A stretch of 64,000 nt of DNA from an uncultured Nitrospiraceae bacterium (GTDB taxonomy: Bacteria > Nitrospirota > Thermodesulfovibrionia > Thermodesulfovibrionales > Dissulfurispiraceae): NCBI GenBank assembly GCA_963727805.1, contig CAVSHF010000005.1:480001-544000 (forward strand). Direction: 5' to 3'. The notes under the pieces are model-generated. The model saw nothing but the letters and a program-made list of their open reading frames with translations, ran no database searches and was not told the origin of the DNA. Both the position numbers and the translations under genes were made by a program. Below, in pieces: positions 4,067-53,176 of the stretch (positions within the stretch are counted from its first letter, which is position 1; every line of letters starts with the position of its first letter).

Positions 4067-4077
4067 TCTATTATTCC

Positions 4078-6445: not shown

Positions 6446-6476
6446 ATCCTCAAATGAGAACAAGGAGAGCTGTCGC

Positions 6477-8771: not shown

Positions 8772-9083
8772 TTACTTCTCCTTTGATTCAAGCATGAACT
8801 TGTACAAAGCCTGGCACCTATCTAATCTTCGCAGATAAACTCTTCTCTGTATTTCGTCTTGTTTTTGGATAATTGGCTTTAACCTGTCACACCTATCAAT
8901 CAACTGCGTTAGCTGATCCTTTGTTAAGTCCATCGCGTCATCAGTCTGTGAGCAGACCGCCTCAAATTCCCTTTGCCACGCATCCACTGCATACACAAGT
9001 CCCGGTTCTGAGAATGTCGCAGCAAAAAAAGTAGCCAAAGAGATGATACAGAATATAAAACCTATCACCCCTGATGCTTTCAT
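8772..9083 (-). CDS. Small exported helical protein, last gene of the cytochrome operon
   Basis: Signal peptide; 4-bp overlap with upstream gene; three Cys in the mature part, no CxxCH. Confidence 0.75.
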   Translation of the reverse strand: MKASGVIGFIFCIISLATFFAATFSEPGLVYAVDAWQREFEAVCSQTDDAMDLTKDQLTQLIDRCDRLKPIIQKQDEIQRRVYLRRLDRCQALYKFMLESKEK

Positions 9084-9994
9084 TTGTCTGTTCCATGGTT
9101 GTGACCGAGGTTTTGCTTAACAGGTTGCCGTTCATTCTCACTGGATTCCGGTTGCTGAAGCGGTTCCCGTTGTTCGGGCTGATGCTCAGACTGTTCATCG
9201 ACCAACTTTGTATGGCATCTCTGACAATCAAGCAATGGAAAAGCGACTTTCCCATGGCATACACCGCAATACTTTCCTTCAAAGATCTCCGGCATGGAGT
9301 ATTTGGTTAGCCCTTTTTTCACCCCTGAGAATATTTCAGGATGACACAATTCACAACCGTTCCAAACAATATGTTTCTTATGAGAAAAGATGATCTGAGG
9401 CATCCCCTCAACTTTGGGCTCCAGAGAAAAATCTTTCTGAATTTTAAGCGATGGCCTCTTCACAGATATTCCCGGTAGAAATCCAATCGGATTGATCAAA
9501 CCTCTTTCTTCTGCCTTTTCCCAATCTATGCCGTTGCCAAACCGTTCCTTCGGCAATTTTTCAGTAAACTTACTAAAATCGTATTCTTTTTTCACCTCTT
9601 TGCCCAAGGAATGGCATCTCTCACATCTATTCAAATCCTTATGTCCATACTCCTTTGAACATGCTTCAAAGACCTTTCTGTCCTGCCATTGCATCTTACC
9701 ATTGTGACATGTACCGCAATAGTATCCTTTACTGTTGTCTGCCGCCCTAATGCCTGTCGCTCCGGCCTTCATCGCAAATGCGATATCTACGTGGCAAAGC
9801 CTACAAGTGAAATTAGATCTATGAAGCCAGTGGTCAAATACAACTGGAGCCAAATAAGCTTTTTCCGAGTAATTATTAATCACAACCCTTCCATATTCGA
9901 ACGGTAAGGGTCTTTTTTTCTTTACCCCGGTTTGAGCTAGCGTCAAGCCCGCAAAGGCAAGAACTAAAATCAGTATCACAAATACTCTCTTCAT
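9080..9994 (-). CDS. c7-type hexaheme cytochrome (two triheme domains)
   Basis: 6 CxxCH; FDHWLH and FSHKKH c7 motifs; GGGAGG before ATG 9994; Gln-rich tail. Confidence 0.88.
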   Translation of the reverse strand: MKRVFVILILVLAFAGLTLAQTGVKKKRPLPFEYGRVVINNYSEKAYLAPVVFDHWLHRSNFTCRLCHVDIAFAMKAGATGIRAADNSKGYYCGTCHNGKMQWQDRKVFEACSKEYGHKDLNRCERCHSLGKEVKKEYDFSKFTEKLPKERFGNGIDWEKAEERGLINPIGFLPGISVKRPSLKIQKDFSLEPKVEGMPQIIFSHKKHIVWNGCELCHPEIFSGVKKGLTKYSMPEIFEGKYCGVCHGKVAFPLLDCQRCHTKLVDEQSEHQPEQREPLQQPESSENERQPVKQNLGHNHGTDK

Positions 9995-10058
9995 ATGTTT
10001 CCTCCCCATGCTGACTTAACAAGACGGTCCTCAAAAGTATTGGGCGGTCATCTCCCGA

Positions 10059-10871
10059 TTAATGCAACTGCTTCACATGACACCTCTGGCATTCGGCAAT
10101 CGGGAAAGCTACATTGAGATGACATAAACCGCAGTATTCCCCCCTCGCGATCTCGAACATCGTATATTTCACGTCACCTCTCTTGACGCTCGGAAAAATT
10201 TCGGGGTGGCAGACCTCACAGCCGTTCCACTTGGCATGTTTCTTATGGGAGAATATTATGTCTGCTGATATCCATTGGCCCCTTGCCTTGATAATGAAAT
10301 CCTCTTGCGGCTTAATCGCTTTCCTCTTCACCGATATCCCTTTTAAAAAATCAACAAGGTGAATTCTGCCCTCTTCTTCAGCTGCCTCCCAATCTATACC
10401 GTTGCCGAGTCCTTTTTTAGGGAGGCGCTCAGTAAAGGTAGCAAAGTCGTATTCTTTCTTGACTTCCTTATCGAAAGAATGACACCGGTCACAACGCTGA
10501 TCCTTCACATCCTCCGATTTGGTAGAGCAAGTCGCAAACACTTTCTTGTCTTCAAAAACAAAAGTGCCGTTATGACATGACCCGCAATAAAATCCTTTTT
10601 CGTTTGTTTCAGCTTTGATTCTGGTTCCCCCCGCCTCCATGGCGAACCCAATATCCACATGACACAGCCTGCAGGTAAAACGAGCTCTGTGGAGCCAATG
10701 ATTAAATACCACAGGAGCACGGCCGGCACGGACCGAATAATTCTTTATAACGACCTGTCCATATTCCTGAGGGGGTACCGCGGTAAAAGCGGACAGTTCA
10801 TTGTTAACGCCAAGAACTCCGCCAATGACAAGGAAAACTATGCCCCAATTAATCACTCCTCTCAATAACAT
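10059..10871 (-). CDS. c7-type hexaheme cytochrome, paralog of 9080..9994
   Basis: 6 CxxCH; FNHWLH and FSHKKH; GNGIDWE shared with the neighbour. Confidence 0.88.
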   Translation of the reverse strand: MLLRGVINWGIVFLVIGGVLGVNNELSAFTAVPPQEYGQVVIKNYSVRAGRAPVVFNHWLHRARFTCRLCHVDIGFAMEAGGTRIKAETNEKGFYCGSCHNGTFVFEDKKVFATCSTKSEDVKDQRCDRCHSFDKEVKKEYDFATFTERLPKKGLGNGIDWEAAEEEGRIHLVDFLKGISVKRKAIKPQEDFIIKARGQWISADIIFSHKKHAKWNGCEVCHPEIFPSVKRGDVKYTMFEIARGEYCGLCHLNVAFPIAECQRCHVKQLH

Positions 10872-10878
10872 GGCATCA

Positions 10879-11787
10879 CTATTGTACTATACTGAATATC
10901 TCAACTCTGTTATTGTCCCTGTCTGCAATGAACAGATCGCCGCTGTTTGTGATGCATATTTGGGTCGGATAGTGAAGAAAGCCCTCTTTCCACCCTTGGG
11001 CCAAATGCCTTGCCTGAAAGGAGCCATCCCTGTTGACGGTAATAATCGTACTGCTGTTCTGGTCTGACAGGAATATGGTCCCCATGCTATCAATAGTGAT
11101 ATTGGCAGCGAAAGTTATGTTCTCTTTCAAGGATTTCGTCAGGGGAGTAAAACCTTGGGCGTCCTTACCGGCAGCGTATACGATGGAATTTACGCTATCA
11201 ATCAGAAATATCGCACCTTGAGCGTCCACTGCAAGATCTGATATGAAACCATATCCATCGGGAAATGGCAGCGACCGCATGAATTTGCCTGCTGGATCGA
11301 GAACCAGCACTCGTCCATTAAATATATCAAGGATATAAATAGCATCGGTTCTATCGATACTGAAGCTCCTCGGCATAAAATCAGAGGGAGCCGGTAGTCC
11401 CTGGGGTGTGATATAACCCGTTAGCGCACCCTCCGGGCTTATCCGGGCAATGCGACGCTGCTTTCCGTCAAGAACGAAGATTTCTCCCTTTGAATTCACA
11501 TGGACCCGCAGTGGATTGGACAGTCCTGAAACTGACAGCTCATCTCCCCCCTTCAATACGCCGTCAACGAACGTATACTTGAGCAGATGATTCCCCCCCG
11601 TATCGGCAACTACAACGAGCGATTTATAGTTGCAGGCGACCCCCTCTGGCAGTTTTATGGCGCCACCCTTGCTGTCAGTGTATATTGAAGCCACAAACCG
11701 AAGTTTGGTTGAGTCGGCACTGAATGCGCCAATCGGCAGGAGCAGAAGTACTACTACAGTAACCAGTTTTATTATCCTCTTTATCAT
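10879..11787 (-). CDS. Exported NHL-repeat beta-propeller
   Basis: PEGVA...VADTG, PTQICI...IADRDNNRV repeats; signal peptide. Confidence 0.88.
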   Translation of the reverse strand: MIKRIIKLVTVVVLLLLPIGAFSADSTKLRFVASIYTDSKGGAIKLPEGVACNYKSLVVVADTGGNHLLKYTFVDGVLKGGDELSVSGLSNPLRVHVNSKGEIFVLDGKQRRIARISPEGALTGYITPQGLPAPSDFMPRSFSIDRTDAIYILDIFNGRVLVLDPAGKFMRSLPFPDGYGFISDLAVDAQGAIFLIDSVNSIVYAAGKDAQGFTPLTKSLKENITFAANITIDSMGTIFLSDQNSSTIITVNRDGSFQARHLAQGWKEGFLHYPTQICITNSGDLFIADRDNNRVEIFSIVQ

Positions 11788-11791
11788 TTGA

Positions 11792-13081
11792 TCACCTCTT
11801 TAATTTAACGTGACACTGTGTGCATAATTCATTGATGGGAGAAGCATAAATCATGTACTTATGCTCGGTACCGTGAGCGCGGTGACAGCTCAGGCACTGC
11901 AGCGTAAGATTTTTGTTCCGAGGGTCTATTACCTTTTCACCGATCGGATGTGTCGAATGCTTCTGCCACTCATGACATGTACTGCACAAATCGATAACAT
12001 TCGGCTGTTTGAAAAAGTATGCATTGTCACTGGCATGGGGATCGTGACATGAGCTGCACATTCCGTCTTTTATCGGCGGATGCTTCGTCTGTGACCTGTC
12101 CTGACGCTCAATGCTATCGGCATGACAGGCGCCGCAAACTTGACGCATCGGAGCTTTTACAAGCTTGGGTTCGGCTGAAGCATGTGGATTGTGGCAGGTG
12201 AGACAGCTTTTTTTGGTCATTAGTGGCCAGTGTATCTTATTCTTGCTGAAAACATTGTTAAGCATAGAGACATGGCAATCCATGCATAACTGGGATCCCG
12301 ACTTCTTTGTCGCCAGCGGGTTCGGCGAGGTCGGATCTTGATGACATTGGCCGCACATCTTGGCTGCAACCGGTTTATGGACATTTTCAAAGAGAATGCC
12401 CGGCTTATTAGAGCCGTGCGGGTTGTGGCAGGTCGTGCAGCGAGCTTTCGCCACTGGGTAATTCATGTGCTGTTTGGCAAATATTGGCCTATTAGTAGTG
12501 TGGCATTTCAGACACAGTGACGGCACCTCATCTCTGAGGAGGAACTTCGCCTTTGTCGATGCGTGAGGGTCGTGGCAGCTCAGGCACCCCTTTTCCACCG
12601 GCGAGTGCTTGAACTTCACCTTCTGCACCGCTTCCCCCATTTCCTTATGGCAGCCGAAGCACAGCTCATTGCCTGCCTTCAACAGATTGAATTTGTTTTG
12701 GGATGAATGCGGATCATGACAGAGCACACAATTGTTTTCTACGACTACCTTATGAGAGCTTACGCTTTTTTCTGGGATCACTGTCTTATGACAGGTGCGG
12801 CAAATGGCGCTTTGGTCTGCAATAAGGAGCTTGCCGTGCTTTGAAGTATGTGGATTGTGACATCCGGTACATTCACCTGCTTTAACAGGGGTGTGAATAT
12901 AAGGATTTTTGAGCTTGTCCTGAAAGGCGACATGACAGTTCAGGCAGACCTTTCCCCTAGCCCCTATGTTCAGGTTAAACTTGTTGTCTGCTGAACTGGC
13001 AGGCGTTCCCACGGAGAGAACACAGACAATGAAAAGCAGAAGAGGCAATGTGATTTTCAAATATGAAACAGCTCCCTTCAT
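11792..13081 (-). CDS. 16-heme cytochrome c
   Basis: 16 CxxCH counted; signal peptide; CHNPH/CHDPH repeats. Confidence 0.93.
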   Translation of the reverse strand: MKGAVSYLKITLPLLLFIVCVLSVGTPASSADNKFNLNIGARGKVCLNCHVAFQDKLKNPYIHTPVKAGECTGCHNPHTSKHGKLLIADQSAICRTCHKTVIPEKSVSSHKVVVENNCVLCHDPHSSQNKFNLLKAGNELCFGCHKEMGEAVQKVKFKHSPVEKGCLSCHDPHASTKAKFLLRDEVPSLCLKCHTTNRPIFAKQHMNYPVAKARCTTCHNPHGSNKPGILFENVHKPVAAKMCGQCHQDPTSPNPLATKKSGSQLCMDCHVSMLNNVFSKNKIHWPLMTKKSCLTCHNPHASAEPKLVKAPMRQVCGACHADSIERQDRSQTKHPPIKDGMCSSCHDPHASDNAYFFKQPNVIDLCSTCHEWQKHSTHPIGEKVIDPRNKNLTLQCLSCHRAHGTEHKYMIYASPINELCTQCHVKLKR

Positions 13082-15060
13082 TTCTTACCTCCCACCACGT
13101 GGCATTCTTCACATGTCCGAGCATCAAAGGGCGGATGAACAACTTCTTTGAAGAAGTGCGCATCCTTTGATGCATGGGGGTCATGACACGTCCTGCAGTC
13201 GATCACATCGGGATTAATACCGATGTGTGCTTTGCTGAAGGCCTCGTCTTTCAGATCGTGACATTGACTGCATATATCTTTAAGAGGTTGGACAAGCAGT
13301 GTCCGCTCGCCCGAATAATGAGGCTTGTGGCAGGTCAGACAATCGCTGGCGGCCGGCGGATGGGCCTTTTCCTTCTTCATTTTCTCACTCTTGTCCTTAT
13401 GGCAGGAGAAGCAGAGATCGGGACCTTCCGCCAGCAGAAGCTTATTCAGTTTCGACTTATGCGGGTTATGGCATTTTGTGCACTCACCCGATGCAAGAGG
13501 CTTGTGTTTGCTCACGCTCCCGTCAAGTCCTTTGCCGAGTTCAACATGACACGAAAGGCAGAGCTTATTCTGCTTATCAAGAAGCACCCCGGAAACATCG
13601 CTTGAATGCGAGCTATGGCAGGAAAAGCACATGCCACCTGCAAATGGGACGTGGTTTGAACCGCCTTTAACTTCTTTCATGAGCTCGGCGTGGCACTTTG
13701 CGCATAACTGCGCTCCGTCAGCCTTCAGCAGTTTCTCTGTTGCCGATCCGTGAGGGCTATGGCAGGCGGCACATTGCGCTTTCCGCACCGGATCATGCAT
13801 ATAAGTTTTTTGGAACCGCGTTTCAGCATCGATATGGCAGCTAAAGCAGACCTTGTCCATTCTGTCCTTCATCATGCCCTGCAGATTCGAACCATGCGGA
13901 TCATGACACGTGCTGCACTTTTGCTCGGCAAACGGCGGGTGAATGACCTTGCTCTTCAGCACCTCTTTCAACTTAATGTGGCAGGTCAGGCAGATCTCGC
14001 CATCCTTGACCTGCAGGAGCCGCGGATTTTTTGCAGCATGCGGTGCATGGCATGACAGGCAGCCCTTCCCACCTGTAACCGCGGAGTGGCTAAAGGCAGG
14101 TTTTTCACTTTTATCTTTATGACATATGAAACAAAGATTATTGCCGCCTTGCATGAGCAGCCTTGGATTTTCCGATGAGTGCGGATTATGGCATGATAGG
14201 CAGAGGCCTTTTTTGAACGGTGCATGATCAACCGTCCCACCTGCCCTTAAAGATGCTGAATCATGGCACATTTCGCACATAGTGCTACCCTTTTGTGTCA
14301 CCTCAAATGGCTTCTGTGACTGGGCCGCTACGTGGCATACATCACATGTCCCCGACGCAACAGGGTTATGCACACTCGTCTTCAGCAGTTTCGGCTGTTC
14401 CGATGCATGGGGATTATGGCAAACAGTGCACGATTTGGTTTCCACCGGATACTCCCCGTGCGCCTTCTTAAAAACTGCAGCGCTCTTGTCATGACAGGAA
14501 AGGCATAATGGGGTCTCCGGCTTTATAAGCAGATTTGTCTCGTCGGAGCTGTGTGAGAAATGACATGCCTTGCAGCCCTCTGTTTGCATCACTTTATGAA
14601 TAACTTTCTTTTCAAACATCTCCTTCTTATGACACTGGAAGCAGACATCATTGCCCGTCGCATTCAACAAATGGCTCGCTTGTGATGCATGGGGATTATG
14701 GCATTGCGTACATTTGCCCGACTTCAACACAGAATGGACATGAGGTTTAGATAGACCGAGCTTCTCTTTTGCGTGGCAGGTATAACAGAGCTCGTTGCCC
14801 GCTTTTTTAAGGACGTTCTTTGGCACCATTCCATGCCTTATGTGGCATTCTTCGCACTTTTTCTCTTTCACCACGGCATGAACGCTCTTCATCGAAAAGT
14901 ATTTTTCAGCAAACGTTGTATGGCAGTCCAGGCATTCTTTACGGGTAAATTTCCTCTCGGCAGCACTCCCAAACACTGCAAAAAGAATAACCATGCTGCA
15001 CAAGAGCCCTGCCACCACCGCTAATCCCTTCTTATGTCGTGCCAATGAGCTCCTCCTCAT
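13078..15060 (-). CDS. 26-heme cytochrome c
   Basis: 26 CxxCH counted; GGGAG before ATG 15060; signal peptide. Confidence 0.93.
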   Translation of the reverse strand: MRRSSLARHKKGLAVVAGLLCSMVILFAVFGSAAERKFTRKECLDCHTTFAEKYFSMKSVHAVVKEKKCEECHIRHGMVPKNVLKKAGNELCYTCHAKEKLGLSKPHVHSVLKSGKCTQCHNPHASQASHLLNATGNDVCFQCHKKEMFEKKVIHKVMQTEGCKACHFSHSSDETNLLIKPETPLCLSCHDKSAAVFKKAHGEYPVETKSCTVCHNPHASEQPKLLKTSVHNPVASGTCDVCHVAAQSQKPFEVTQKGSTMCEMCHDSASLRAGGTVDHAPFKKGLCLSCHNPHSSENPRLLMQGGNNLCFICHKDKSEKPAFSHSAVTGGKGCLSCHAPHAAKNPRLLQVKDGEICLTCHIKLKEVLKSKVIHPPFAEQKCSTCHDPHGSNLQGMMKDRMDKVCFSCHIDAETRFQKTYMHDPVRKAQCAACHSPHGSATEKLLKADGAQLCAKCHAELMKEVKGGSNHVPFAGGMCFSCHSSHSSDVSGVLLDKQNKLCLSCHVELGKGLDGSVSKHKPLASGECTKCHNPHKSKLNKLLLAEGPDLCFSCHKDKSEKMKKEKAHPPAASDCLTCHKPHYSGERTLLVQPLKDICSQCHDLKDEAFSKAHIGINPDVIDCRTCHDPHASKDAHFFKEVVHPPFDARTCEECHVVGGKK

Positions 15061-15402
15061 GTATTCTCCCTCAATTTGGATTTGAATATTGTCCATTCAT
15101 AACTCGGAACGTCGATTAAGTCTTTTGATAGCAGGAAATTGTTTATAACAGTGTTTCCCCAACTGTGCACTCTCAGGTTATCGCTCTGTTCATTGCATGC
15201 GCTGACGGGACTTTGGAGGATGATCGTTTCTGCACGTGAAAAGCGTAGATCAGAAGGTTTTGCAATTGCACTTGCAACCGACAAAAAAAGGACCTCGGAA
15301 CCGCAGCCTAAAAGTCTGCGACCTTTCGGGGAACCCTGTGCAGAAATGCCGATTTCTTCCCACATAAAATAATTCCTGTATGTAGTCTGTAACTACTATA
15401 TA

Positions 15403-17193
15403 TTACCCGGATTTGGAAAGGTAAATCTTTACGTCGCCAGCCGCTCTCAGCCTGGCCGCATATTCTTCCACAGAATCTTTAAGCTTCTTGTTGTATACCT
15501 TTTCCGCTATTTTCTGCTGAACCGCAGTCAGGGTTTCAGCCTTCGGAGGCACAATCTGCTTTACAATAAGTACATAAAAATAGCCCCCGGGACTCGCAAA
15601 GAGTCTCGCATCATCCGCTTTGGCCCCGCCCACAACCTTCTGTATCCCCTCCGGCAGGCTTTTAACAGTCAGGATATTCCCCTCAAACGAGAGCGAGTCC
15701 TTGGCATCTTTCTTCACCTGCCCTTCGGCATTGCTCAGCAGCCAATTATAGTCGGTGCCCTTTCTCAGTTTCTCCATGGCATTTTCAGCATCTTCTTTTT
15801 TTGTAAAAGCAAGACTGTTCAATCTAATCATCTCTGGAGAGGAGTATTCGTTTATATGTTCTTTGTAATACCCCTCAATCTCATCTTTACTTAATTTCAC
15901 GTCGGGGGCTACAACCTTTTCGACGAACGTGCCGAAAATAACAGAGTCTCTGTATTCTTTTATCAAGGTCTTGAATTCATCAGTCTTGTCCACACCCTGT
16001 CTGGCGGCTTCGCTGTCCAGAAGCGCTTTATCAAGCATGTTCCCGAGCACTTCATATTTCTTTTCATTGATTCGCTTCTCGGCAACGGCCTCTTGTATGC
16101 CATGAAAGAATGACTTCTTGATGGCGGCAGCCAAAATACCAACGGTGACAGGCTTCTCTCCCTGTATTACCGCGACAGTCCTCTTGTCCTTCGAGAGTTT
16201 TTCGAGGCCGGGTTTAGCGGCTTCAAAATCAAGGTTTTTGAGTAGCTGTTTGTTGACTTTCACATATTTCCTAATGAGCGCTGCCATGTACTGCCGAATC
16301 ATTTTGGCCTTCTGGTCGGCAAGCGACCGCTGCTCCGCTTTTGCCTTTGCCTCCGCATTGTCCACATAGCGAACATCTATCAGCTTGACCACCGAATATC
16401 CCGAATTATCCTTGCCAGCCATAATCCTGATGACAGGACTTACAGAACCTGTCTTCATCACCGCCACGGCATCAGCCACCTGCGGGAGGAGATATGCGGG
16501 CGCGATGAACTCTTCCTGCTCATTTCCCTTCGCTTTTTTATCTGCTACAGCCTTTGCAGCCAGTTCCTCAAAGTTCTTCCCGGCCTTGATATCTTCCAGC
16601 ATATTCTTCGCGTCTTCTTCCTGGAAGAATAGAACGGATCTGATCTTCCATTCCTTGATCATGTCTCTGTATAGTGCCTCAACCTCTTTAGGGTCCGCCC
16701 TGGCGTCTTTCGCAGCTCCTTGCAGGAGCAGTTCCCTGCGTAACTGTTTCTCATAAGCGCTGACCGTATCCGTCACTTCAGGCAGCTCGTCGATACCCAT
16801 CCCATGGGCTTCCTGGACAATCAGCCTTACGTTAATAAGGCGATCGAGTATTGAAGCATAATCCAGCTTCTGAGCTGCCGTCTGTTCGCTCCTCTCTTCA
16901 TGAGAAGCAATCAGCGCGTCCCTGACTTCCTTAAGTGTGATGCTCTCGTCGTTTACCTTTACCACGGGGACGTTGGAAAATATTGGTGAAAAAAGCGGCA
17001 CGCTGAGACCTATATTTACCTCACCAGGGCCGGACTTTGGAGCAGGCTTTGCCTCGGGACCAGCTGTCTCGGATGTTTGAACGTAGCTTTCTGCAGGCGC
17101 TTTCTTATCTTCTGCGTACGCCGGGATAGTGAAGTAAATGGGCAGCATGAGTGTACAGACAAACACAATGATCATTCTCATTATTTTCTCCAC
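15403..17193 (-). CDS. Periplasmic parvulin/SurA-type peptidyl-prolyl isomerase chaperone (OscH-like)
   Basis: Two rotamase-like domains (GKNFEELA...GSVSPVI; GYFYVL), VKVNDESIT; strong SD before GTG. Confidence 0.85.
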   Translation of the reverse strand: MEKIMRMIIVFVCTLMLPIYFTIPAYAEDKKAPAESYVQTSETAGPEAKPAPKSGPGEVNIGLSVPLFSPIFSNVPVVKVNDESITLKEVRDALIASHEERSEQTAAQKLDYASILDRLINVRLIVQEAHGMGIDELPEVTDTVSAYEKQLRRELLLQGAAKDARADPKEVEALYRDMIKEWKIRSVLFFQEEDAKNMLEDIKAGKNFEELAAKAVADKKAKGNEQEEFIAPAYLLPQVADAVAVMKTGSVSPVIRIMAGKDNSGYSVVKLIDVRYVDNAEAKAKAEQRSLADQKAKMIRQYMAALIRKYVKVNKQLLKNLDFEAAKPGLEKLSKDKRTVAVIQGEKPVTVGILAAAIKKSFFHGIQEAVAEKRINEKKYEVLGNMLDKALLDSEAARQGVDKTDEFKTLIKEYRDSVIFGTFVEKVVAPDVKLSKDEIEGYYKEHINEYSSPEMIRLNSLAFTKKEDAENAMEKLRKGTDYNWLLSNAEGQVKKDAKDSLSFEGNILTVKSLPEGIQKVVGGAKADDARLFASPGGYFYVLIVKQIVPPKAETLTAVQQKIAEKVYNKKLKDSVEEYAARLRAAGDVKIYLSKSG

Positions 17194-17491
17194 AGAATTC
17201 CTCCCCCGTATCCCTGTATTAATGATTCTTTACGATGGCAACAATGCAAGCATACCGTGCAATAGTCCCATTATAACTATTTATTACGCCATTTTCAATA
17301 GTCCAAATCTAATCAAAATCTATCAGAATCTGACAAACCCGGACATGCCTGCGGGTCGAGTGCTTTAGTTATGTTGTGGCGCGAATTTCGTGTGAGGAGA
17401 CCTCCAGTTCTGATGAAAACCGCCGGCTATCCAAGAATAAGCCATAGATTCCGAGGTCATTGCGCATTTATCCGTTAATGAATTATTCGGG

Positions 17492-18664
17492 TTATGATTC
17501 CATAGAAGACTGAGTGATGAAAAGATTTTTCTGCAGCATTCTCAAGATCCTCGTGGTGATTCTGGAAGTCAACTCGTGGGCAGTGTATACTTTGCCCCAG
17601 TCAAAGGCGTATATGTAGTCATCCCCTTCATTATGACTTCTCGATGCCCATATGATCCTTCCGCTTGTGAATATCCCGCCTGTCCTGTATATGACATCCA
17701 TCGAGAATTCCACCTTTGCTGCCTCTGCCGAACTTTGAGGATCCAGATATTCAAAATCGTTGCCGATCAGCACAAGGTCTGTGTCAAGGAGGCTGCAGAG
17801 AAGATCGATGTCGGAGATTGATATGCCTTCAGGCGTTACCAGTCTCATGTTCAAAAGGTTCTGCCGTACAATTCCGGGCTCGATAACCTCGAAGTCTCCG
17901 CTTTTCACAAGTTTTTCGACAAAATTCAATGCAATCAAGTCACCTGCGTTCCGTCGCATACTTCTATTTGTAAATGGGACCACGGCAATGCTATGTCGTT
18001 TGCCCTTATGAAGAACAGCCGATGAGAAGACGGCCCTGGGACTATATCCCCACCCGCCTTTATTCAAAGTTCCGGCTTTGCCGGAAAAATTATCCACGAT
18101 GGAGTCATAGAGCCGCCCAAACGCCTTTGCTACCAGTTTTTCAGGGTCTTCAATCAACCAGATGCCTAATATCCCCGGTGACTCATCGCCCGCAAGCGAG
18201 ACACTATCTATCCAGAGAATCGACACCTGTTCTCCGGTTGAAACAAGGCGGCTGAGCACAGCGATTTTCGGCGGCGCCTTCTCATCGTATAATTCGATAT
18301 CAGTGATAAGCACTGCACCGATGTCTAACTCAGACTTGAAGGCTTGTGCTGTCTCGATATCTATGCCGCCTGTATAACGCAGTCTGTGGGCCGCCATAAA
18401 CCGATTGAGAGTTGTATCATCCAAGATGGAAAATCCCAAAGACTTTAGATGATCAACTGCCGATTGCCGGAAGGCTTTGAGCGGAACCGCCTTTCCGCTC
18501 AGGTTTTGAAATGGCAGGACTGCTATTTTGAGCTGGCCGATATTAGATTGTTTCGGGAGCGCCTGTTGTCTTGAGCCTGTTGCACAACCGAACAGAATGA
18601 GCAGGCTCAGGCATACCGGAATAACAAAAAAATATCTATTTAAAAAGCTTATCGAGCAGATCAT
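17492..18664 (-). CDS. Lipoprotein with two CsgG/TolB-N-like domains (OscG-like)
   Basis: LFG-C lipobox; IAVLPFQNLS and IAVVPFTNRS repeats. Confidence 0.75.
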   Translation of the reverse strand: MICSISFLNRYFFVIPVCLSLLILFGCATGSRQQALPKQSNIGQLKIAVLPFQNLSGKAVPLKAFRQSAVDHLKSLGFSILDDTTLNRFMAAHRLRYTGGIDIETAQAFKSELDIGAVLITDIELYDEKAPPKIAVLSRLVSTGEQVSILWIDSVSLAGDESPGILGIWLIEDPEKLVAKAFGRLYDSIVDNFSGKAGTLNKGGWGYSPRAVFSSAVLHKGKRHSIAVVPFTNRSMRRNAGDLIALNFVEKLVKSGDFEVIEPGIVRQNLLNMRLVTPEGISISDIDLLCSLLDTDLVLIGNDFEYLDPQSSAEAAKVEFSMDVIYRTGGIFTSGRIIWASRSHNEGDDYIYAFDWGKVYTAHELTSRITTRILRMLQKNLFITQSSMES

Positions 18665-19226
18665 TCACTGCTTTTTCGGTCACATCGTTCATAGGGGTAC
18701 CGCCTCCACCAAGGAGCCTGTCTTTTAGTTTTATTCCTCCTTTTGTGGAAGATGCTGTCCATACCACCCTTCCTGTTTGACCATCGAGTATCTGTAGGCT
18801 CATCGAAATGACGTTTGCTTCTGCACTTCCCGAACGCATTTCGCCATATTCTCTTATTACACCGGTGACCACAGCATTCACTTTCAAGTTAGATGCCAAG
18901 CTAATCACTTCTTCAGTGGACGGTGCAACAGGATTGGCTATATTGATCCTTGAGAGAGCGCGGTAGACTTCCCCGGGCGGCAGCACGTAAACACTCCCCG
19001 TCTCCATCAGCATGGGAGTGAAAACGTCTCTAACTCTATCGCCGGCCATTGAGTCCCTTGAGAGATTTGCAAATGGCATCACAGCCACCGTCTGTATCGA
19101 GGTGAAGTCCATATTCTGGTCTCGCCAGACCTCGCCATGTCCGCCACATCCCGATAGGGCGCTCACAGCAACCAAAAGGATAATCAGTTTAAATATGAAT
19201 GTTTTCATGTACTTTACAGTCTCCAT
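18636..19226 (-). CDS. CsgG/GNA1162-like lipoprotein (OscF-like)
   Basis: LSG-C lipobox; VAVMPFANLS, DGQTGRVVW; start may be 19208. Confidence 0.8.
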   Translation of the reverse strand: METVKYMKTFIFKLIILLVAVSALSGCGGHGEVWRDQNMDFTSIQTVAVMPFANLSRDSMAGDRVRDVFTPMLMETGSVYVLPPGEVYRALSRINIANPVAPSTEEVISLASNLKVNAVVTGVIREYGEMRSGSAEANVISMSLQILDGQTGRVVWTASSTKGGIKLKDRLLGGGGTPMNDVTEKAVNDLLDKLFK

Positions 19227-19296
19227 TTAACCATTCTAACATTAATACCATCTTCCTTCAACTTCGTTGCAAATATTTCCAAATGCCCAGCAAATT

Positions 19297-21606
19297 TCAG
19301 AATGTAGCATGGAGTATCGCATTAAACGTGTCCTGGCTTGTGTGCTGGGTTAAGCTTGTTATGATGGACTGTGACTTAAAGGCCAGATATGAAATGGTCA
19401 GAAATGCATACCTGCTGATATTCCAGCGAATGCTTGGCGAGAGTAATGTATCCTTCGTACTGTTCAATGAGGACAGATTTTGATTGTAGCTGCAATTGAA
19501 CAGGAGTGTGCCATCGGGGAACGGCGACCAGTTTGCGCCGTAACTCGTAAGCGTTGTCTGCTGCACATTGACTCCGGAAAAGATACCGTATGACCCGAAA
19601 AGGCTCAACGTAGGGAAAGGAGTATAAGTGAATGATATGTCGCTTCGTGTGGATATCGTCTTGGAATCGGGTGCGCCTCCTCCCGTTGTATTGGAATTAG
19701 TCCACGAATAGTCAGCGTTTATAGTCAGAACCCTGTAGGGAACGAGACTGAGTGTGGAGGTCATAATTTCACTTTTGTTTTCTTGAAGTGTCGCCGAGGT
19801 GCTCCAGCTTGCCCCCCCTGAGATCGATGCATTCACCCCTTTATATAATTCGGCCAGATTGGTGAGGAATAGCGAGGATGTGTCATTCGGCTTACCTCCT
19901 AACTGTTCCTTCCTGTTGCTGAAGACAAGTGAGTCACTCAGCGTCCTGATGGGTACCGCAGTAAGGGATGCATTACTGATATATGCGACGCCGGTACCCT
20001 GCAAGCCGTAGCTATCCTCCCTTGCCACCCTAGCGTTTGTAGAAAATACCGGGTTGAACTTGTAAGCCCCGGACAGTCCATTGGTGATAATGTAGCTTTT
20101 CTGGCTCGGTTGCCCGACAGCGAAGCCTGAACCCGCATTCGACGTCTCTGAATAGAAGGCCGACATGTCGTAATAAAGAGTCGGGCTGTTGAGTATTCTC
20201 GTCCTCACGTTCAGGTTATAGGTCTGTGAAGTCGTGGTAGTCTTGAATTTCGCATTTTGCGAAGAAGTTGCCGTATCGAATGCCTGGATTTGGCTGATCA
20301 GGATGTTATTGACATCCACTCCCGGCACAGCAGCCGGCACAGGGAGAGGCCTTGTTACCACCTTGATGAACTGGGTTGTTACTTTTTGAAAGGTAATTCG
20401 AAACGTCCTATCTATCTGCGAGAATATAAAAGTCGCCGCCGGCTGGTAGAGGGTCCACTGCTGCGTGGCTGTGGGATTCACCCCTTGCCCGATATTGGGG
20501 TCGGAGCTTATATAGACATCCCAGGAATACGATGTGGCTATACTGCTGACATCCTGATTAACAGTGACAAAAATGGCATTGACTTCAGTGGGCGTAGCAA
20601 AGGCCACCCCCATATCACGAGGGTTGCTGTCGGCCGGGTTCGTCTGGGGAAATCCGATATTCAGCTTTCCCACATTTCCGATGAAATCGCCGCCGTTAAC
20701 AAGGAAAGGTGTGGACTTCATCGCATCATTGGCCGGCGTATGAGGCGGCAAATCCACGCCTAACGGTGAGTCGGCTGTCGAGTCGACAGCGTATAGACCC
20801 GAAACGGGAAACAGGCTGACTTGTATCTGGCTGCTGCCCCCGCCACTGGCAGCAGTTGTGTCCTGCTGGGAGATGTCCCCATCGGCGGTGAGCGACACGC
20901 GGTTGTTAAGAAAAGAATGCCAATAGATGAATCTGCCCTCATTGGCGATTTGCTTTGTATCTGTATTCTGCAGTTTGTCCTTTGAATCGTTGTAAGTAAA
21001 CTGATAATTCAGATCGAGGTTGCTTATGGGGGTAAATTTGGAGCCCACGATGAACCGGTCGCCGATTGTATCCTGAAGGGCACGCTGTGCGTCATATGTC
21101 TCTGTCCTCTGCCCCGTCAAATCCAACTCCGGCAGCCCCGCAGGCTTGAAGGTGAACAGCCCGCTGTAATTATTATTGATAATGGTCTGGGGTGCCGAGC
21201 CTGTGGAATTCGTCGTAATCTGGAGCCTGTTATAAGTGATCACCGCTGAATAAGGTGCGCTGTTTAGAGTAAGGGTGACATTCGGTTGCAAGGTCTTTGT
21301 CCTGGACGTTGTGTCGACGTTATCCGTGCTGGACTTTGTCAGATCATCCTGAAAAATACCATTCGCAGAAAGTATGAGGTTGGGAAAGAGTGTCTTCTTG
21401 AGCATAAGGGTATATTGCTGCAGGTAATCATCCGTGGTCGTGCTGGAAACTTTTCCATTTCCACTGTCGGTCTTCGATCGGGTATTAGAATAGTCCCATT
21501 CCGCATTAACACTTATATCGTCGGCACAGGCACTTCCGGGGAATGCTGCCGTATTTATGATAGCAACGGCAAGCAGAAATAAACAGAACAGCCATTGTCG
21601 TATCAT
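19297..21606 (-). CDS. Outer-membrane beta-barrel with inserted domain (OscE-like)
   Basis: Signal peptide, Ser/Thr/Tyr-rich amphipathic strands, C-terminal ...LHATF. Confidence 0.75.
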   Translation of the reverse strand: MIRQWLFCLFLLAVAIINTAAFPGSACADDISVNAEWDYSNTRSKTDSGNGKVSSTTTDDYLQQYTLMLKKTLFPNLILSANGIFQDDLTKSSTDNVDTTSRTKTLQPNVTLTLNSAPYSAVITYNRLQITTNSTGSAPQTIINNNYSGLFTFKPAGLPELDLTGQRTETYDAQRALQDTIGDRFIVGSKFTPISNLDLNYQFTYNDSKDKLQNTDTKQIANEGRFIYWHSFLNNRVSLTADGDISQQDTTAASGGGSSQIQVSLFPVSGLYAVDSTADSPLGVDLPPHTPANDAMKSTPFLVNGGDFIGNVGKLNIGFPQTNPADSNPRDMGVAFATPTEVNAIFVTVNQDVSSIATSYSWDVYISSDPNIGQGVNPTATQQWTLYQPAATFIFSQIDRTFRITFQKVTTQFIKVVTRPLPVPAAVPGVDVNNILISQIQAFDTATSSQNAKFKTTTTSQTYNLNVRTRILNSPTLYYDMSAFYSETSNAGSGFAVGQPSQKSYIITNGLSGAYKFNPVFSTNARVAREDSYGLQGTGVAYISNASLTAVPIRTLSDSLVFSNRKEQLGGKPNDTSSLFLTNLAELYKGVNASISGGASWSTSATLQENKSEIMTSTLSLVPYRVLTINADYSWTNSNTTGGGAPDSKTISTRSDISFTYTPFPTLSLFGSYGIFSGVNVQQTTLTSYGANWSPFPDGTLLFNCSYNQNLSSLNSTKDTLLSPSIRWNISRYAFLTISYLAFKSQSIITSLTQHTSQDTFNAILHATF

Positions 21607-21627
21607 TACCGGCGACCGCCTCCTATC

Positions 21628-23055
21628 CTATCGTTCGCCCATTACGGTCACCCAGTATGGGTTAGCATCAACGTCTAGTTCCGCGATTACCTTTCTGCTC
21701 GTAAGATTAATGATCTTGACCAGCCTCTTTTCAGGGACGACAACGCAGAGGGTGTTCTCGTCGTTATCTATTGTCATAGAGACAACCTCTCCCTCCACAG
21801 GGATGAAGTCGCCAGCAATGAGAGAAAAGGGATCATGAACCTCGATGTCCCTTCCTCCGGTCAGCCCGATATACAGTATATTCGTCTGCGGATCTACCTT
21901 GATCGCGCTTCCTCCAGTACCAAGATAAACCCTGTTGCTGAGTGAGTTCGAAGCCGGATCGCGTATTGTCAGATACGGTGATCGCTGATGGAGCACGTAA
22001 AGTTTGTCTTCCCTGCTGCTGAACTGTCCGATAATGGGACCCGGTTCAGTGCGAATTGTTTGGACTGCCTGGGCAGTGACGGCACGACCGGACAGGAATG
22101 CAGAAAGGTTAATTACCGAAATGGTGTTGGAAAGAGAATTGAACACATAAGCCCTGCTCCCAGTCCTGTTGATGAGTATCGAATGAGACCCTTCTCCGAC
22201 GGGTACCCTCGCTATTGCGACCAGCGAGTTTGTATTGATAATGCTCACTGTCTGTGAGCCCTTGTTCACCGTAAGCAAAAACTTCCTGTCGGCGGTGAGC
22301 GCCAATTCACCGGGGCCGTCCCCTCCATTGAGAAATATTCTGTCGACAATCGTGCCTGACAAGAGGTCGATGATACCGACTGTGTCATCACCCTCAAACG
22401 CAACATAGGCCTTGCGCAAAGTCTGGTCCAGTGCTATACCCCTCGGCTGCTGACCTGTGGCAATGATCCCTTTCACGAGCCCTGACTGTTTGTCAAAAAC
22501 TGTAATAGTATTGGCCCCACTGTTGGATACATACCCGATAAGATTAGCCATCGTTGTACTTGGGATGGAAACAGTGAATACCGGCCTGAAACTGTAGTTC
22601 TCCTGCACCGCCTTGGCATGCTGATAGACAAGGCTGAGGAGAAGGGCCCTTTTCCTGGTCACTTCAAAGAGGAATTCGTTCTTCTGAGGCTCAGACGGCA
22701 CAAGAAGTGCCGCCTCACCCTCATCCGCAGTTACTTTCGCACTCTTCGCCTTTACGGAAAGGCCTGTATATTGACCTGGAGGAAGCTGGCCCGAGGCAAA
22801 GAAACGTTGTCTCTTGAGACTGCTTCCTTTCAGCGTTGCAAACGAAAGAGTAAGGGGAAACTCCTTGCCGTCAATGCGCGTCGCCGTAATGCTCTCGATT
22901 TCGATGGTAACCCTGTCTGCTTCCTGGGAGAAGGGCTGCAGATATACGAAGACCTCGCCATCATTTTCGAGCACCGGTTTCACCTGAGCTTTTATCACCT
23001 CACAGCCTGTGGTAAAGAGGAAGAAACAAAGTACAATGACGAGTGACCTTTTCAC
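21628..23055 (-). CDS. Lipoprotein with YVTN/YncE beta-propeller (OscD-like)
   Basis: TTG-C lipobox; YVSNSGANTITVFD, AYVFNSLSNTISVI repeats. Confidence 0.82.
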   Translation of the reverse strand: MKRSLVIVLCFFLFTTGCEVIKAQVKPVLENDGEVFVYLQPFSQEADRVTIEIESITATRIDGKEFPLTLSFATLKGSSLKRQRFFASGQLPPGQYTGLSVKAKSAKVTADEGEAALLVPSEPQKNEFLFEVTRKRALLLSLVYQHAKAVQENYSFRPVFTVSIPSTTMANLIGYVSNSGANTITVFDKQSGLVKGIIATGQQPRGIALDQTLRKAYVAFEGDDTVGIIDLLSGTIVDRIFLNGGDGPGELALTADRKFLLTVNKGSQTVSIINTNSLVAIARVPVGEGSHSILINRTGSRAYVFNSLSNTISVINLSAFLSGRAVTAQAVQTIRTEPGPIIGQFSSREDKLYVLHQRSPYLTIRDPASNSLSNRVYLGTGGSAIKVDPQTNILYIGLTGGRDIEVHDPFSLIAGDFIPVEGEVVSMTIDNDENTLCVVVPEKRLVKIINLTSRKVIAELDVDANPYWVTVMGER

Positions 23056-23433
23056 CCTTTATACCCCCCATTTTGAGAGATGGTAGATGCAATACTGTAA
23101 TCGTACCGCTGCCTGACTGTCGCCGCCATTGCAGCGGTAAACAAGAAGTTGTTAGAAGGCAACTGCCTTCAGATCAAGACCCCCGGAATGATAAAATTCA
23201 CCCAATACATATAGTAAACTCAGAACAGCAATAATTCAATATAGAAGCTGGAACTGATGCACGGAATCCGCTATGTGCTTCTCATTGTACCAATATGTCC
23301 TTTGGAAGGCAAGATATAACAGATATATCAGATATATCAGATGAAACAATATTTTGAGCTATCAATATCTTCTAAAAACGTGACAAAAGCCGATAATTCA
23401 TTAATTGCTATCGAGAAGACTGTGTTCATAAGG

Positions 23434-23470
23434 CAATATGGCGCCGGTCTCTCTGACCGGCGCCATATTG
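23434..23470. terminator. Perfect 16-bp hairpin just downstream of the omcS-like gene
   Basis: CAATATGGCGCCGGTC-tctct-GACCGGCGCCATATTG; no U-tract on the minus strand. Confidence 0.6.
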
Positions 23471-23503
23471 AATGCTCAAGGCGTCTATACTTTGTCTGCT
23501 AAA

Positions 23504-24910
23504 TTAGTCTTTCGCGTGGCACTTGTTGCAAAGTACGCGCTGATTCGCTGCAAATACACTTGACGGCCTGCCGTCCATTGCGTTTTTGTACTGTGCGCTG
23601 GAATATAATACTCCGCGTTGCCCCGGCGTAAGGTCATTACTTAGGTAGCTACCAGCTATCGTCGTCAGCTCGTCAGCAGCATCAAATCTGGTCATATTCG
23701 CCCATGCTGAGGCATGAGCCTTATGGCAGGAAAGACACGACACACTTTGAGAGCCGGTGACGGCTGGAGCGTTGTTGACAGTGGTGGCAGTTCCAGCAGC
23801 CAAGGCTACTAAGGATACGCCTTCTACGGGAACCAATGATGAGTAAAGATTGGTGCCGGTCAAGTTGCCGGAGTATACATAGGCGTTATAATTAGAAGCG
23901 AGGGTGTTAGTGCCGGCGGTGGCGACCCCCAGTAATGCAGTGCCGTCAGAGGTGCCGGCAGGGTGAATAAAGCTGCCCATTCCGCCTTTTATGTTGGTGT
24001 GACAGTTCTGGCACCATTCAGACATACCCTTGCCATATTGAACCACAACCTCCGTAGCAGCAGGCTGACCAGCCGTGATACCGAAGGTAGTGGCCACTAT
24101 GTCATAGTTGGTGGGTGCTATCGCAGTAGGGGAATCTTTGGCAAATGCATATGAGCTGCCGACAGACGCCGGTGCATACCCTGCGCCTGCAAGCAGCCTG
24201 TAAACGCCAACCGCAGAGCCTGTTGGTGCCAAAACACCATAGGACCCGGAACCATTAGTAGAAGAGGTTGTACCACCGGTGAATCCGCTTGTAAAGACGG
24301 TGCTCTTGATGTCACTTGTCTGCGTCGGATCTCCAGTAGTATGTCTGTATGTGCCGTGAGGGTCATGGCAGCTCGAGCAATGCAGGTTTGCCTGCGGATA
24401 GCTTCCGCCCGGTGCGGTCTGGAGCGTGATAGCATAACCGGCAGACGATCCCAAACCCCAGTCAGCCGCATTGATGTTGTGGCCGCGACGGCTCTTATCA
24501 TAGGATGAAGTCGCAGAAGCAGGAGTTGCCAGCAGCCAGCCGAAATCACCGCCGGGGGTAAAATGGGTCGGAAGGCCGGTTGTAACTGCATCAGGTGACA
24601 TAATATGATAACCTGAGCCAGGGGTTTCGGCATTGGCGTGGCAGTTCAGACAGGTAGAACTCTGGTCACTGCCCTGAAGCAGAAAAGCGTTACCCGAAAA
24701 CTGCGCCGAGGCTCCTTTATAGCTGAAGCCTGTCTGGGCTTTTACCCCGTGGCCTCCCATAACGCCTGTGGTACCGCTTGCATTGTGCATGGTATGGCAG
24801 CTGTCGCAAGTGGCGACACCGCCATCGTGAAAAGCATAGGAAATGCCGCTTAACCCGAGAGTCACCATCGCTGCTGCCATGATAACCATTAAAACTTTTG
24901 TTGCTTTCAT
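23504..24910 (-). CDS. omcS: OmcS-family hexaheme outer-surface cytochrome (nanowire subunit homolog)
   Basis: Mature N-terminus FHDGGVATCDSCHTMHN; TPGGDFGWL, APGGSYP..LHCSSCHDPHG, GMSEWCQNCH; C-terminus LCNKCHAKD; 6 CxxCH; AAGGAGG before ATG 24910. Confidence 0.9.
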   Translation of the reverse strand: MKATKVLMVIMAAAMVTLGLSGISYAFHDGGVATCDSCHTMHNASGTTGVMGGHGVKAQTGFSYKGASAQFSGNAFLLQGSDQSSTCLNCHANAETPGSGYHIMSPDAVTTGLPTHFTPGGDFGWLLATPASATSSYDKSRRGHNINAADWGLGSSAGYAITLQTAPGGSYPQANLHCSSCHDPHGTYRHTTGDPTQTSDIKSTVFTSGFTGGTTSSTNGSGSYGVLAPTGSAVGVYRLLAGAGYAPASVGSSYAFAKDSPTAIAPTNYDIVATTFGITAGQPAATEVVVQYGKGMSEWCQNCHTNIKGGMGSFIHPAGTSDGTALLGVATAGTNTLASNYNAYVYSGNLTGTNLYSSLVPVEGVSLVALAAGTATTVNNAPAVTGSQSVSCLSCHKAHASAWANMTRFDAADELTTIAGSYLSNDLTPGQRGVLYSSAQYKNAMDGRPSSVFAANQRVLCNKCHAKD

Positions 24911-25050
24911 CGAAGTCCTCCTTTTTTTTTGTTGCAGATTATTATTTCTTGTGAGTCGGCAAAACAACTTCTTAAGATGCTCATTGTTCAGTGTTTGCTT
25001 GGCTTATCCCGTCCGTCACCTCCTGATAAACTGAAATTGCTTTGCCTGCT

Positions 25051-25066
25051 AGCAATCACAGTACCG
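25051..25066 (-). promoter_or_regulatory. sigma54 promoter of the omcS-like gene
   Basis: Minus strand CGGTACTGTGATTGCT (GG-N10-GC). Confidence 0.6.
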
Positions 25067-25082
25067 TGTATTTTCATGTGCA

Positions 25083-26048
25083 TTATTGATCAAAGTTCAC
25101 GGCGAAAACGCTGACACCGCGCCCTCTCAATTGACTTACATAAACCTTGCCGTTGTTATCCACCGCCAGGTCATTGGGGACGATCAGGTTATCCGTGTTG
25201 AACCCCCTATACCCGAACTCCGTCTTGAAGTTATAGTCCCGGTCAAAGACTATGACTGCGCATTTGAGCTTGTCAGTTACATAAATATTCCCCTTGTTAT
25301 CCTCGGCAATCCCGGAAACAATGTTGAATTTCCCGGGAGAACTGCCGCGCTTGCCGAAAGATGTCAACGTGCCGTCGGGAGACACTATGTAAACACTGAA
25401 CATAGAGGGCATCGTGAAGAGGATCCTACCGCCATTGTCAACCGTGAGACCGAAGATGCCCGTATTGGACTGAATTTTTTTCTCGTCGAATTTAATCAAC
25501 GCTGCAAGATCGTAGCCGGCCTGGAAAATACCGTTTGAGTCGGTTACGGCAACCTTCATCTTTGAATCGCTTGCAAGGTAAAGGCGGCCGTTTTTATAAA
25601 AAAGTCGGTTGGGAAAAAAGTCGGATGCCATTTTCGGCGGGAAGCCCTTGAATTCGGTCCTTGAAACAAATTCACCGCGGTAGTTGCACTTCGTCAGTGT
25701 CGGCTGAGAGCCGGGGTTCTGATAATTAAGGAGGAGGAAATTGCCTTCATTATCTACCACGAAATCGACAACGTTACCAAACTGACCTGTGTCGAAATCA
25801 AAGATCTGCATCCCGAACTTGTTAAAAATCACTATGGACTGCGTTACCGGATCGGCGACCGAGACTTCTCCAGTAGCATCGTCAATACTCATCCGCACCC
25901 AGTTAAATGGTGCAATCCCGTCAAAATTGGAAAGACTATAAAGATATGAGGCCTTTGCTGCCAGAACATCCACCGGCATCAACGCTATTGTCATGATGAG
26001 CGCTAACGCCAAGGTTAGAAGAGTATTGTTTAGTCGCTTTCTTTCCAT
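25083..26048 (-). CDS. Exported NHL-repeat beta-propeller upstream of omcS
   Basis: FGKRGSSPGKF..GIAED..GNIYVTD, PNDLAVD..VYVSQ. Confidence 0.88.
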   Translation of the reverse strand: MERKRLNNTLLTLALALIMTIALMPVDVLAAKASYLYSLSNFDGIAPFNWVRMSIDDATGEVSVADPVTQSIVIFNKFGMQIFDFDTGQFGNVVDFVVDNEGNFLLLNYQNPGSQPTLTKCNYRGEFVSRTEFKGFPPKMASDFFPNRLFYKNGRLYLASDSKMKVAVTDSNGIFQAGYDLAALIKFDEKKIQSNTGIFGLTVDNGGRILFTMPSMFSVYIVSPDGTLTSFGKRGSSPGKFNIVSGIAEDNKGNIYVTDKLKCAVIVFDRDYNFKTEFGYRGFNTDNLIVPNDLAVDNNGKVYVSQLRGRGVSVFAVNFDQ

Positions 26049-26062
26049 GATAAAAAAGATAA

Positions 26063-26078
26063 AGCAATGTTTGTACCA
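26063..26078 (-). promoter_or_regulatory. sigma54 promoter
   Basis: Minus strand TGGTACAAACATTGCT; -12 C is 16 nt before ATG 26048. Confidence 0.65.
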
Positions 26079-28137: not shown

Positions 28138-28239
28138 AACCATGTCCGCAGCAATCTCGGGGATTCCCTAATGCAGACCGGGAGGGAGGCAATCATGGTT
28201 GCGGAATAGTAATCCGTCATCAACTTTTCGCCGCCTTTG

Positions 28240-29986: not shown

Positions 29987-30006
29987 AGTTCCATCAGAAC
30001 AGTGCG

Positions 30007-52955: not shown

Positions 52956-53176
52956 ATACCCTCCACTACAAATTCGATATGTTTGAATGTTGCCTTGCTC
53001 CATTATAAAACGGCAGTTTTACGGTTAGCAAGTTCGTGTATGTAAATCTTATTAATTTTGTTAGGGAAATAAGATCAAGATTCTTTAATCGCCAGCCTTT
53101 TTGCGATGAATAGGCTTTGGAGTATACAAAGGGAATCGTCCCGACATTTTCGATTGTCCGGTCAAAAATAACTAAC

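Follow-up and report, generated by a model that had tools for sequence, protein, structure and literature searches.

An intact osc (omcS-companion) cluster with a single OmcS-family hexaheme gene in a Nitrospirota genome

The 64-kb stretch of DNA analysed here (the window; positions 480,001 to 544,000 of contig CAVSHF010000005.1, assembly GCA_963727805.1) belongs to an uncultured member of the Nitrospirota, most likely of the family Dissulfurispiraceae. It carries 13 open reading frames (ORFs), all on the minus strand from 26048 to 8772, that are almost certainly an intact osc (omcS-companion) cluster. Judged from sequence and phylogeny, the one OmcS-family hexaheme cytochrome of this cluster represents a third OmcS subfamily and is not a strict OmcS orthologue, and the cluster probably builds a filament that is used for electron transfer. 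The osc cluster has already been described and is common outside Geobacter, and this is not a new kind of system. An earlier note, made from the DNA letters alone, had read the locus as an OmcS-type nanowire locus in a host other than Geobacter; the placement of the host in the Nitrospirota agrees with this and rules out a Geobacteraceae strain.

The cluster and its Geobacter counterpart

The 13 genes follow the order NHL, hexaheme, YVTN propeller, barrel candidate, lipoprotein, two-domain lipoprotein, peptidyl-prolyl isomerase (PPIase), 26-heme cytochrome, 16-heme cytochrome, NHL, two c7-type hexahemes and small protein (Table 1). ORF calls and a motif count agreed with the earlier note on this co-oriented arrangement and on a total of 60 CxxCH motifs (6+26+16+6+6). 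Shuffling of residues within the 13 proteins gave a mean of 0.59 such motifs and a maximum of 4 (1000 shuffles), and the three plus-strand frames of the locus contain none. All 13 frames are unbroken and of orthologue length. A Pfam and NCBIfam scan backed the labels of the NHL and YVTN propellers, the PPIC rotamase, the doubled-CXXCH cytochromes and the c7 triheme domains, and returned no family for the barrel candidate, the two-domain lipoprotein or the small protein.

To compare the locus with that of Geobacter sulfurreducens, the genome carrying an OmcS identical to PDB 6EF8 (G061) was used as the reference, and the letters D to H were assigned by position between oscC (GSU2501) and oscI (GSU2495), both of which are named in PMC13194489. 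Nine companion genes follow the G. sulfurreducens order at 35-56% identity and include the eight-gene block GSU2500-GSU2493 in order, with an OmcS-family hexaheme directly upstream of this block and an NHL gene before the hexaheme. For all nine companions, the best whole-genome match of the reference protein in the host is the window gene; the reverse whole-genome search agreed in the three cases run (NHL, YVTN and barrel), while the other six companions are supported by one direction and synteny. The proposed correspondence with GSU2493-GSU2505 was therefore borne out for the companions by order and best matches, but it does not extend to the c7 pair and the small gene, which are absent from the G. 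sulfurreducens cluster. The two loci differ further in that, in place of the single window hexaheme, G. sulfurreducens has omcS, omcT, GSU2501 and an additional gene; no GSU2502-like gene is present at the window locus, and the best host match (27%) lies on another contig. The 16-heme gene of the reference genome (L087:8189-9529) consists of two overlapping frames with 10 and 5 CxxCH motifs, and a frameshift difference in oscJ between G. sulfurreducens strains has been reported (PMC13194489).

Folding has been assigned to OscH, secretion to OscE, OscF and OscG, and morphology to OscD (PMC13194489). The 769-residue barrel candidate ends in Phe, and its fold is a prediction because the barrel clusters that make up its family-assigned atlas neighbours reach only 0.77. 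The 196-residue lipoprotein matches a PelC profile (E 1e-6) and, by fold, the PelBC structure 9H80 and PelC rings. A barrel-lipoprotein secretion model has been outlined (PMC13194489, PMC13712944), and the PelC-like lipoproteins that follow the large barrel gene would fit a barrel-plus-ring secretion channel. The PelB-PelC exopolysaccharide channel (9H80) likewise combines the PelC fold with a large barrel gene before the lipoprotein; in contrast, the window lipoprotein is only 20% identical, its cargo would be a cytochrome, and both a ring and its binding to the barrel are putative. An MtrAB-type conduit was not detected at the locus, since the barrel candidate has no MtrB or PioB match in NCBIfam or Pfam.

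The host genome comprises 3.89 Mb in 5 contigs and is 100% complete. The GC content of the locus (45-50%) is flat and equals that of the large contigs (47-48%), so there is no compositional island, and a recent foreign island was ruled out on this basis. Near-identical DNA was found in 30 of 30 bins of one freshwater-sediment metagenome run (X1), which may relate to the source of the assembly and is not independent support. No RNA run carrying this DNA was found, which speaks neither for nor against expression. Related loci were collected with an OscF-type lipoprotein profile, which found 211 relatives in the genome collection; figures for loci refer to the best 80 of these 211.

The hexaheme represents a third OmcS subfamily

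The hexaheme resembles OmcS (GSU2504; PDB 6EF8 and 6NEF) in its six CxxCH motifs, distal histidines, N- and C-terminal motifs and fold. It matches 6EF8 with E 8e-72 and is 46% identical to OmcS, 44% to OmcT and OmcJ and 41% to GSU2501, while its C-terminal end is of the OmcS/T/J type, unlike that of GSU2501. All 12 heme-ligand histidines are kept, six of them in CxxCH motifs and six elsewhere, and exactly six non-motif histidines are near-invariant across the OmcS family (108-116 of 116 members). In OmcS there are 12 axial histidines, one of which is donated by the neighbouring subunit, and the filament rises by about 4.8 nm per subunit (PMC6584659). A heme-free predicted model with a predicted local distance difference test (pLDDT) score of 78 had 6EF8 as its sole PDB match (template modelling scores 0.70/0.80, E 3.9e-28). 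The mature protein has 442 residues, compared with 407 in OmcS, and features five insertions of 6-14 residues; its Ser and Thr content is 22% against a family median of 19% (rank 5 of 116). A tblastn search of the whole host genome (E <= 1e-4) found one OmcS-like gene and neither tandem nor dispersed paralogues, as the earlier note had expected.

Trees were constructed from 116 hexaheme sequences and from 49 of these, and an approximately unbiased (AU) test was carried out on the 49 under LG+G4, with groups named after the larger tree. In both trees the window hexaheme groups with proteins of Geomobilimonas luticola, Geomonas, Geotalea, Myxococcota and other Nitrospirota. A branch with 100/100 support in the 49-sequence tree divides it from OmcS/T/J and from GSU2501, and forced grouping was rejected both with OmcS/T/J (AU p 0.0044) and with GSU2501 (AU p 0.0015). 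This places the hexaheme in a third subfamily. The earlier note had it grouping with OmcS and had named separation from OmcS as grounds for giving up its reading; the branch does set it apart, although the OmcS fold and ligands are kept. An identity with GSU2501 (OscC) was also considered, as the gene lies directly before the YVTN gene in the same way, but was rejected because the tree, the AU test and the C-terminal tail disagree with it.

A single-hexaheme osc layout (layout 3, clade 3A) has been described in G. luticola, Geotalea and Geomonas (bioRxiv 2025.11.06.686851), whose loci, like the window, place a lone hexaheme immediately ahead of the eight-gene block. The hexahemes of G. luticola (L029) and Geomonas (L014) share 47-49% identity with that of the window and form a group with it at 100/100 support. 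That preprint terms the layout-3 hexahemes GSU2501-like, whereas the wider tree presented here sets them apart from GSU2501. We found no report of filaments for the third subfamily in the literature and no solved filament in the PDB searched. Polymerisation is known for OmcS, whereas for the window hexaheme, in its separate subfamily, it is a prediction.

Among the 116 OmcS-family proteins, eight lack the position of His16, which we take to be the OmcS histidine that bridges subunits; a literature search on this role gave nothing pertinent. All eight are encoded directly after the osc block, behind the last NHL gene (loci L008, L011, L013, L017, L020, L033, L044 and L058), and they make up 8 of the 10 hexahemes in that position. 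If His16 does bridge subunits, these proteins could cap or anchor filaments.

Table 1. Predicted features of the osc cluster and of its probable regulators, with window coordinates
Feature	Position	Strand	Length (aa)	Evidence
Sigma-54 (-24/-12) promoter motif, likely operon start	26064..26078	-		Motif match
NHL beta-propeller, GSU2505 position	25083..26048	-	321	43% identity; best match in both whole genomes
OmcS-family hexaheme, candidate filament subunit	23504..24910 (ATG 24910)	-	468	Sec signal; mature from residue 27
16-bp RNA hairpin after hexaheme stop	23434..23470	-		z -6.2; 0/200 shuffles as stable
YVTN beta-propeller lipoprotein, GSU2500/OscD by position	21628..23055	-	475	39%; best both ways; lipobox-like motif; TIGR02276
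Large predicted outer-membrane beta-barrel, GSU2499/OscE by position	19297..21606	-	769	35%; best both ways
PelC-like lipoprotein, GSU2498/OscF by position	18636..19226	-	196	56%
Two-domain lipoprotein, GSU2497/OscG by position	17492..18664	-	390	41%; second half matches PelC-like gene
SurA/PPIC-type chaperone (PPIase), GSU2496/OscH by position	15403..17193	-	596	38%; PF13145 twice
26-heme cytochrome, GSU2495/OscI	13078..15096 (start may be 15060)	-		26 CxxCH; 54%
16-heme cytochrome, GSU2494/OscJ	11792..13081	-		16 CxxCH; 52% over 336 aa
NHL beta-propeller, GSU2493	10879..11787	-	302	47%; PF01436
c7-type hexaheme, two triheme domains, accessory	10059..10871	-	270	TIGR04257 twice
Second c7-type hexaheme, accessory	9080..10009	-	309	TIGR04257 twice; 3OV0 match E 3.5e-30
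Small exported protein, no known family	8772..9083	-	103	Unnamed atlas clusters at 0.92-0.94
PhnD-like binding protein, PAS histidine kinase (periplasmic CxxCH), sigma-54 response regulator	48473..53003	-		Predicted cognate regulators

Promoter, hairpin and probable regulators

Position 26078, at which the earlier note ended the locus, is the first base of the sigma-54-type motif. Of 48 related loci, 22 have such a motif before the NHL gene; it was seen in none of 48 in-gene controls and in none of 74 regions upstream of YVTN genes. A transcript from this motif would begin only about 4 nucleotides before the NHL start codon, and the hexaheme gene has a strong purine-rich ribosome site. Neither a sigma-70 promoter scan (38 versus 25 +/- 5) nor a terminator scan (16 versus 16.5) was usable. 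Strong hairpins (z < -2) lie behind 61 of 120 OmcS-family ORFs but only 4 of 74 YVTN genes, and the one that follows the window hexaheme is likely a stabiliser or partial terminator.

The hexaheme is preceded by a GEMM riboswitch in G. sulfurreducens (G061) and in G013 (locus L004) and G127, two genomes of the host's family. None was detected before the window hexaheme at the gathering score or at E <= 10, with seven above the cut-off elsewhere in the genome; because, by a rough pattern, just 20 of the 54 hexahemes that occupy the OmcS position have a GEMM ahead of them, this absence is ordinary. Kinase and regulator genes adjoin osc in G013, G139 and G291, and their best host matches (43-75%) lie at 48473-52044 of the window, 22 kb upstream of the cluster and beyond a glycosylation block. 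On this comparison, the genes at 48473-53003 are likely to be the cognate osc regulators, although, unlike the regulators of the G. sulfurreducens osc cluster, they are at a distance and of another lineage.

The c7 hexaheme pair and the small gene

Among 42 related loci in which the region behind the last NHL gene could be seen, one has c7 hexahemes there; this is L078, from a genome of the host's genus (G005; 79% complete, 6% contaminated). In G013, a c7 pair and a homologue of the small gene (54% identity) lie between the regulators and the osc cluster. The c7 family is present in 58 of 230 genomes of the host's order, mostly without osc genes, and in only 5 of the 13 with a close OscF. No full-length c7 match was found in G061, G127 or G139. 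The c7 pair was accordingly rejected as core osc genes, and together with the small gene it is best read from these comparisons as a lineage-specific addition. Since the c7 trihemes PpcA-E charge OmcS wires (PMC10954620), it may be guessed by analogy that the c7 pair does so for an OmcS-type wire in this host.

Proposed function and alternatives

We favour, with some confidence, a reading in which the cluster builds an electron-transferring filament. A heme-bearing sensor kinase and a sigma-54 activator (48.5-53 kb) would switch on a single transcript from the motif at 26078, and the hairpin behind the hexaheme gene would let the subunit exceed the assembly proteins in amount. The signal peptide of the hexaheme and a CcsB heme-attachment gene in the genome (above cut-off), both seen in the sequence, would provide for export and heme attachment. 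By comparison with the Geobacter work, the SurA-like chaperone would fold the subunit, the barrel and PelC-like lipoproteins would form the exit channel and the YVTN lipoprotein would shape the filament, in which a histidine of one subunit may bind a heme of the next and so link the two; none of the six distal histidines is missing. The 26-heme and 16-heme cytochromes and the added c7 pair could then pass periplasmic electrons to a heme-stacked surface filament of a single hexaheme, which would carry them between the periplasm and outside partners. Possible acceptors are a metal oxide, humics, sulfur or a partner cell.

Several points weigh against this proposal. The six distal histidines are also kept in OmcT, OmcJ and GSU2501, so that their presence is not proof of polymerisation. 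The five insertions count in the same direction, and one of them directly follows the N-terminal heme, in a weak part of the model. The osc secretion model has itself been labelled speculative (PMC12307469), and OmcS proved dispensable for anode growth and Fe(III) oxide reduction (PMC13194489), which argues against inferring function from gene presence.

An alternative is a trans-envelope conduit without long filaments, in which the 26-heme and 16-heme cytochromes and the barrel feed a surface hexaheme, monomeric or in short oligomers, that behaves as OmcT, OmcJ or GSU2501 may. The hexaheme falls outside both tested clades (OmcS/T/J and GSU2501) and occupies the GSU2501 position beside the YVTN gene, and OmcS is the only relative known to polymerise (bioRxiv 2025.11.06.686851). 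However, by following the NHL gene it also takes the position of OmcS, its C-terminus is of the OmcS type and it is closer to OmcS than to GSU2501; moreover, the hairpin points to production of the subunit in excess, and the barrel lacks an MtrB/PioB match while a separate MtrAB-like pair sits elsewhere in the genome. We regard such a conduit as fairly unlikely.

A filament with another job, such as electron uptake, partner-cell links or service as biofilm matrix, and perhaps coated with sugars through the glycosylation genes nearby, is improbable in our view. The dispensability of OmcS in Geobacter would be compatible with this, the direction of electron flow is unreadable from sequence, glycosyltransferase, Wzm/Wzt and TPR genes flank the locus, and dsrAB and aprA indicate that the host has soluble acceptors. 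Both dsrA and aprA exceed their family cut-offs and dsrB is also present, while further genes, read from position and recall, are presumably dsrMKJOP and dsrC. A genome-wide search for DsrD (PF08679) gave no match; a 79-residue ORF directly after dsrB (C5:1189010-1189249) matches only below the cut-off (E 0.003). On these genes, sulfur metabolism is likely reductive. Nevertheless, the locus bears no sign of an uptake or matrix role, the G. sulfurreducens locus likewise has TPR and glycosyltransferase homologues next to it, and the 48 hemes (26+16+6) of dedicated periplasmic-type cytochromes in the core favour electron traffic.

Distribution and evolution

The best 80 loci derive from Thermodesulfobacteriota (29), Nitrospirota (25), Myxococcota (12), Rokuibacteriota (3) and three further phyla (one each), with eight unassigned. 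The eight-gene block is whole and in order in 47 of the 80 (12 of them from Nitrospirota), across at least four phyla, and in the remaining 33 it is cut by contig ends, broken or rearranged. An OmcS-family gene lies directly before the block in 45 of these 47 loci, and 32 of the 115 full hexahemes of the loci stand alone between NHL and YVTN genes, as in the window. The earlier note had drawn attention to the occurrence outside Geobacter and to the single hexaheme; both are true, but these counts show that both are common.

A close OscF orthologue (>250 bits) occurs in 13 of the 230 genomes of the host's order, and 47 others contain a distant group (107-149 bits); OmcS-family genes were found in 26 of 401 Nitrospirota genomes sampled. 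The family relatives G013 and G127 hold the same osc lineage at 58-82% identity. Phyla are mixed on a quick six-gene companion tree of 31 loci, in which the window groups with the same-family loci L004 and L006 and not with the same-genus locus L078. This mixing would fit transfer or differential loss and indicates no direction. The patchy spread and the mixing of phyla, along with the lack of the riboswitch of two relatives, might also suggest that this host acquired the cluster as cargo, which is now silent or in decay. This is very improbable, given that all 13 genes have unbroken frames, that the promoter, hairpin and regulators are retained, that GC equals that of the genome and that the two family relatives hold the same lineage.

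OmcS genes have been reported in Thermodesulfovibrionia genomes (PMC8478452), and the available text of PMC12954529 yielded nothing on osc. No paper reporting an osc cluster from Dissulfurispiraceae was found in our literature search, although Shen et al. 2025 (Cell Chem Biol 32:239) may list Nitrospirota in the paper or its supplements; they reportedly describe the osc cluster, under a title that calls it "widespread and ancient".

Flanking and other electron-transfer genes

The cluster is flanked at 27184-45287 and 5360-8550 by glycosyltransferase (GT2, GT4 and GT11), methyltransferase, Wzm/Wzt and GDP-fucose genes, which resemble the glycosylation blocks found beside OmcE clusters (PMC13712944). 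Two membrane TPR proteins are also encoded in the flanks, and several other osc loci, that of G061 among them, have TPR homologues as neighbours. The tandem TPR membrane genes (41760-45287) have 1173 bases in common at 99.7%, which could be due to recent duplication, to conversion or to the assembly. Ahead of the operon lies a TonB C-terminal domain gene (26347-26829), which is conserved in the upstream region of L004 and L005 (59-70%).

The host genome contains 28 ORFs with at least three CxxCH motifs. A second candidate conduit, at C5:1118183-1121292, pairs a DmsE-family decaheme (above cut-off) with an MtrB/PioB-like barrel (below cut-off). Within the window, a DUF3373 protein and a 7-heme cytochrome are encoded at 130-5231 and another 7-heme cytochrome at 56255-57145; just beyond it (C5:476692-479706) lie an ExtKL-family cytochrome (above cut-off) and a 9-heme protein with weak ExtN/ExtO matches. 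Two identical 129-residue c7-like triheme genes are on separate contigs (C3:565290-565679 and C5:1032744-1033133).

Implications

A more elaborate version of the filament proposal, which we put forward tentatively and consider doubtful as a whole, is that the third OmcS subfamily (Nitrospirota, Geomonas, Geotalea and Myxococcota) forms a sole-subunit nanowire that in this presumed sulfate reducer would be charged by the c7 pair in place of PpcA-E, controlled by a heme sensor in place of a cyclic-dinucleotide riboswitch, and decorated on its Ser/Thr-rich insertions with glycans from the adjacent genes. If true, this self-contained locus with one hexaheme would be the simplest system for asking which OmcS relatives make wires. 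Which of them polymerise is stated as an open question in bioRxiv 2025.11.06.686851, and a single hexaheme outside the OmcS and GSU2501 clades offers a clean test. The locus also extends a described electron-export machine to a near-complete, dsrAB-bearing genome of the Nitrospirota, whose members are usually regarded as sulfur cyclers, and the presence of osc suggests that such bacteria may also trade electrons with minerals or partner cells.

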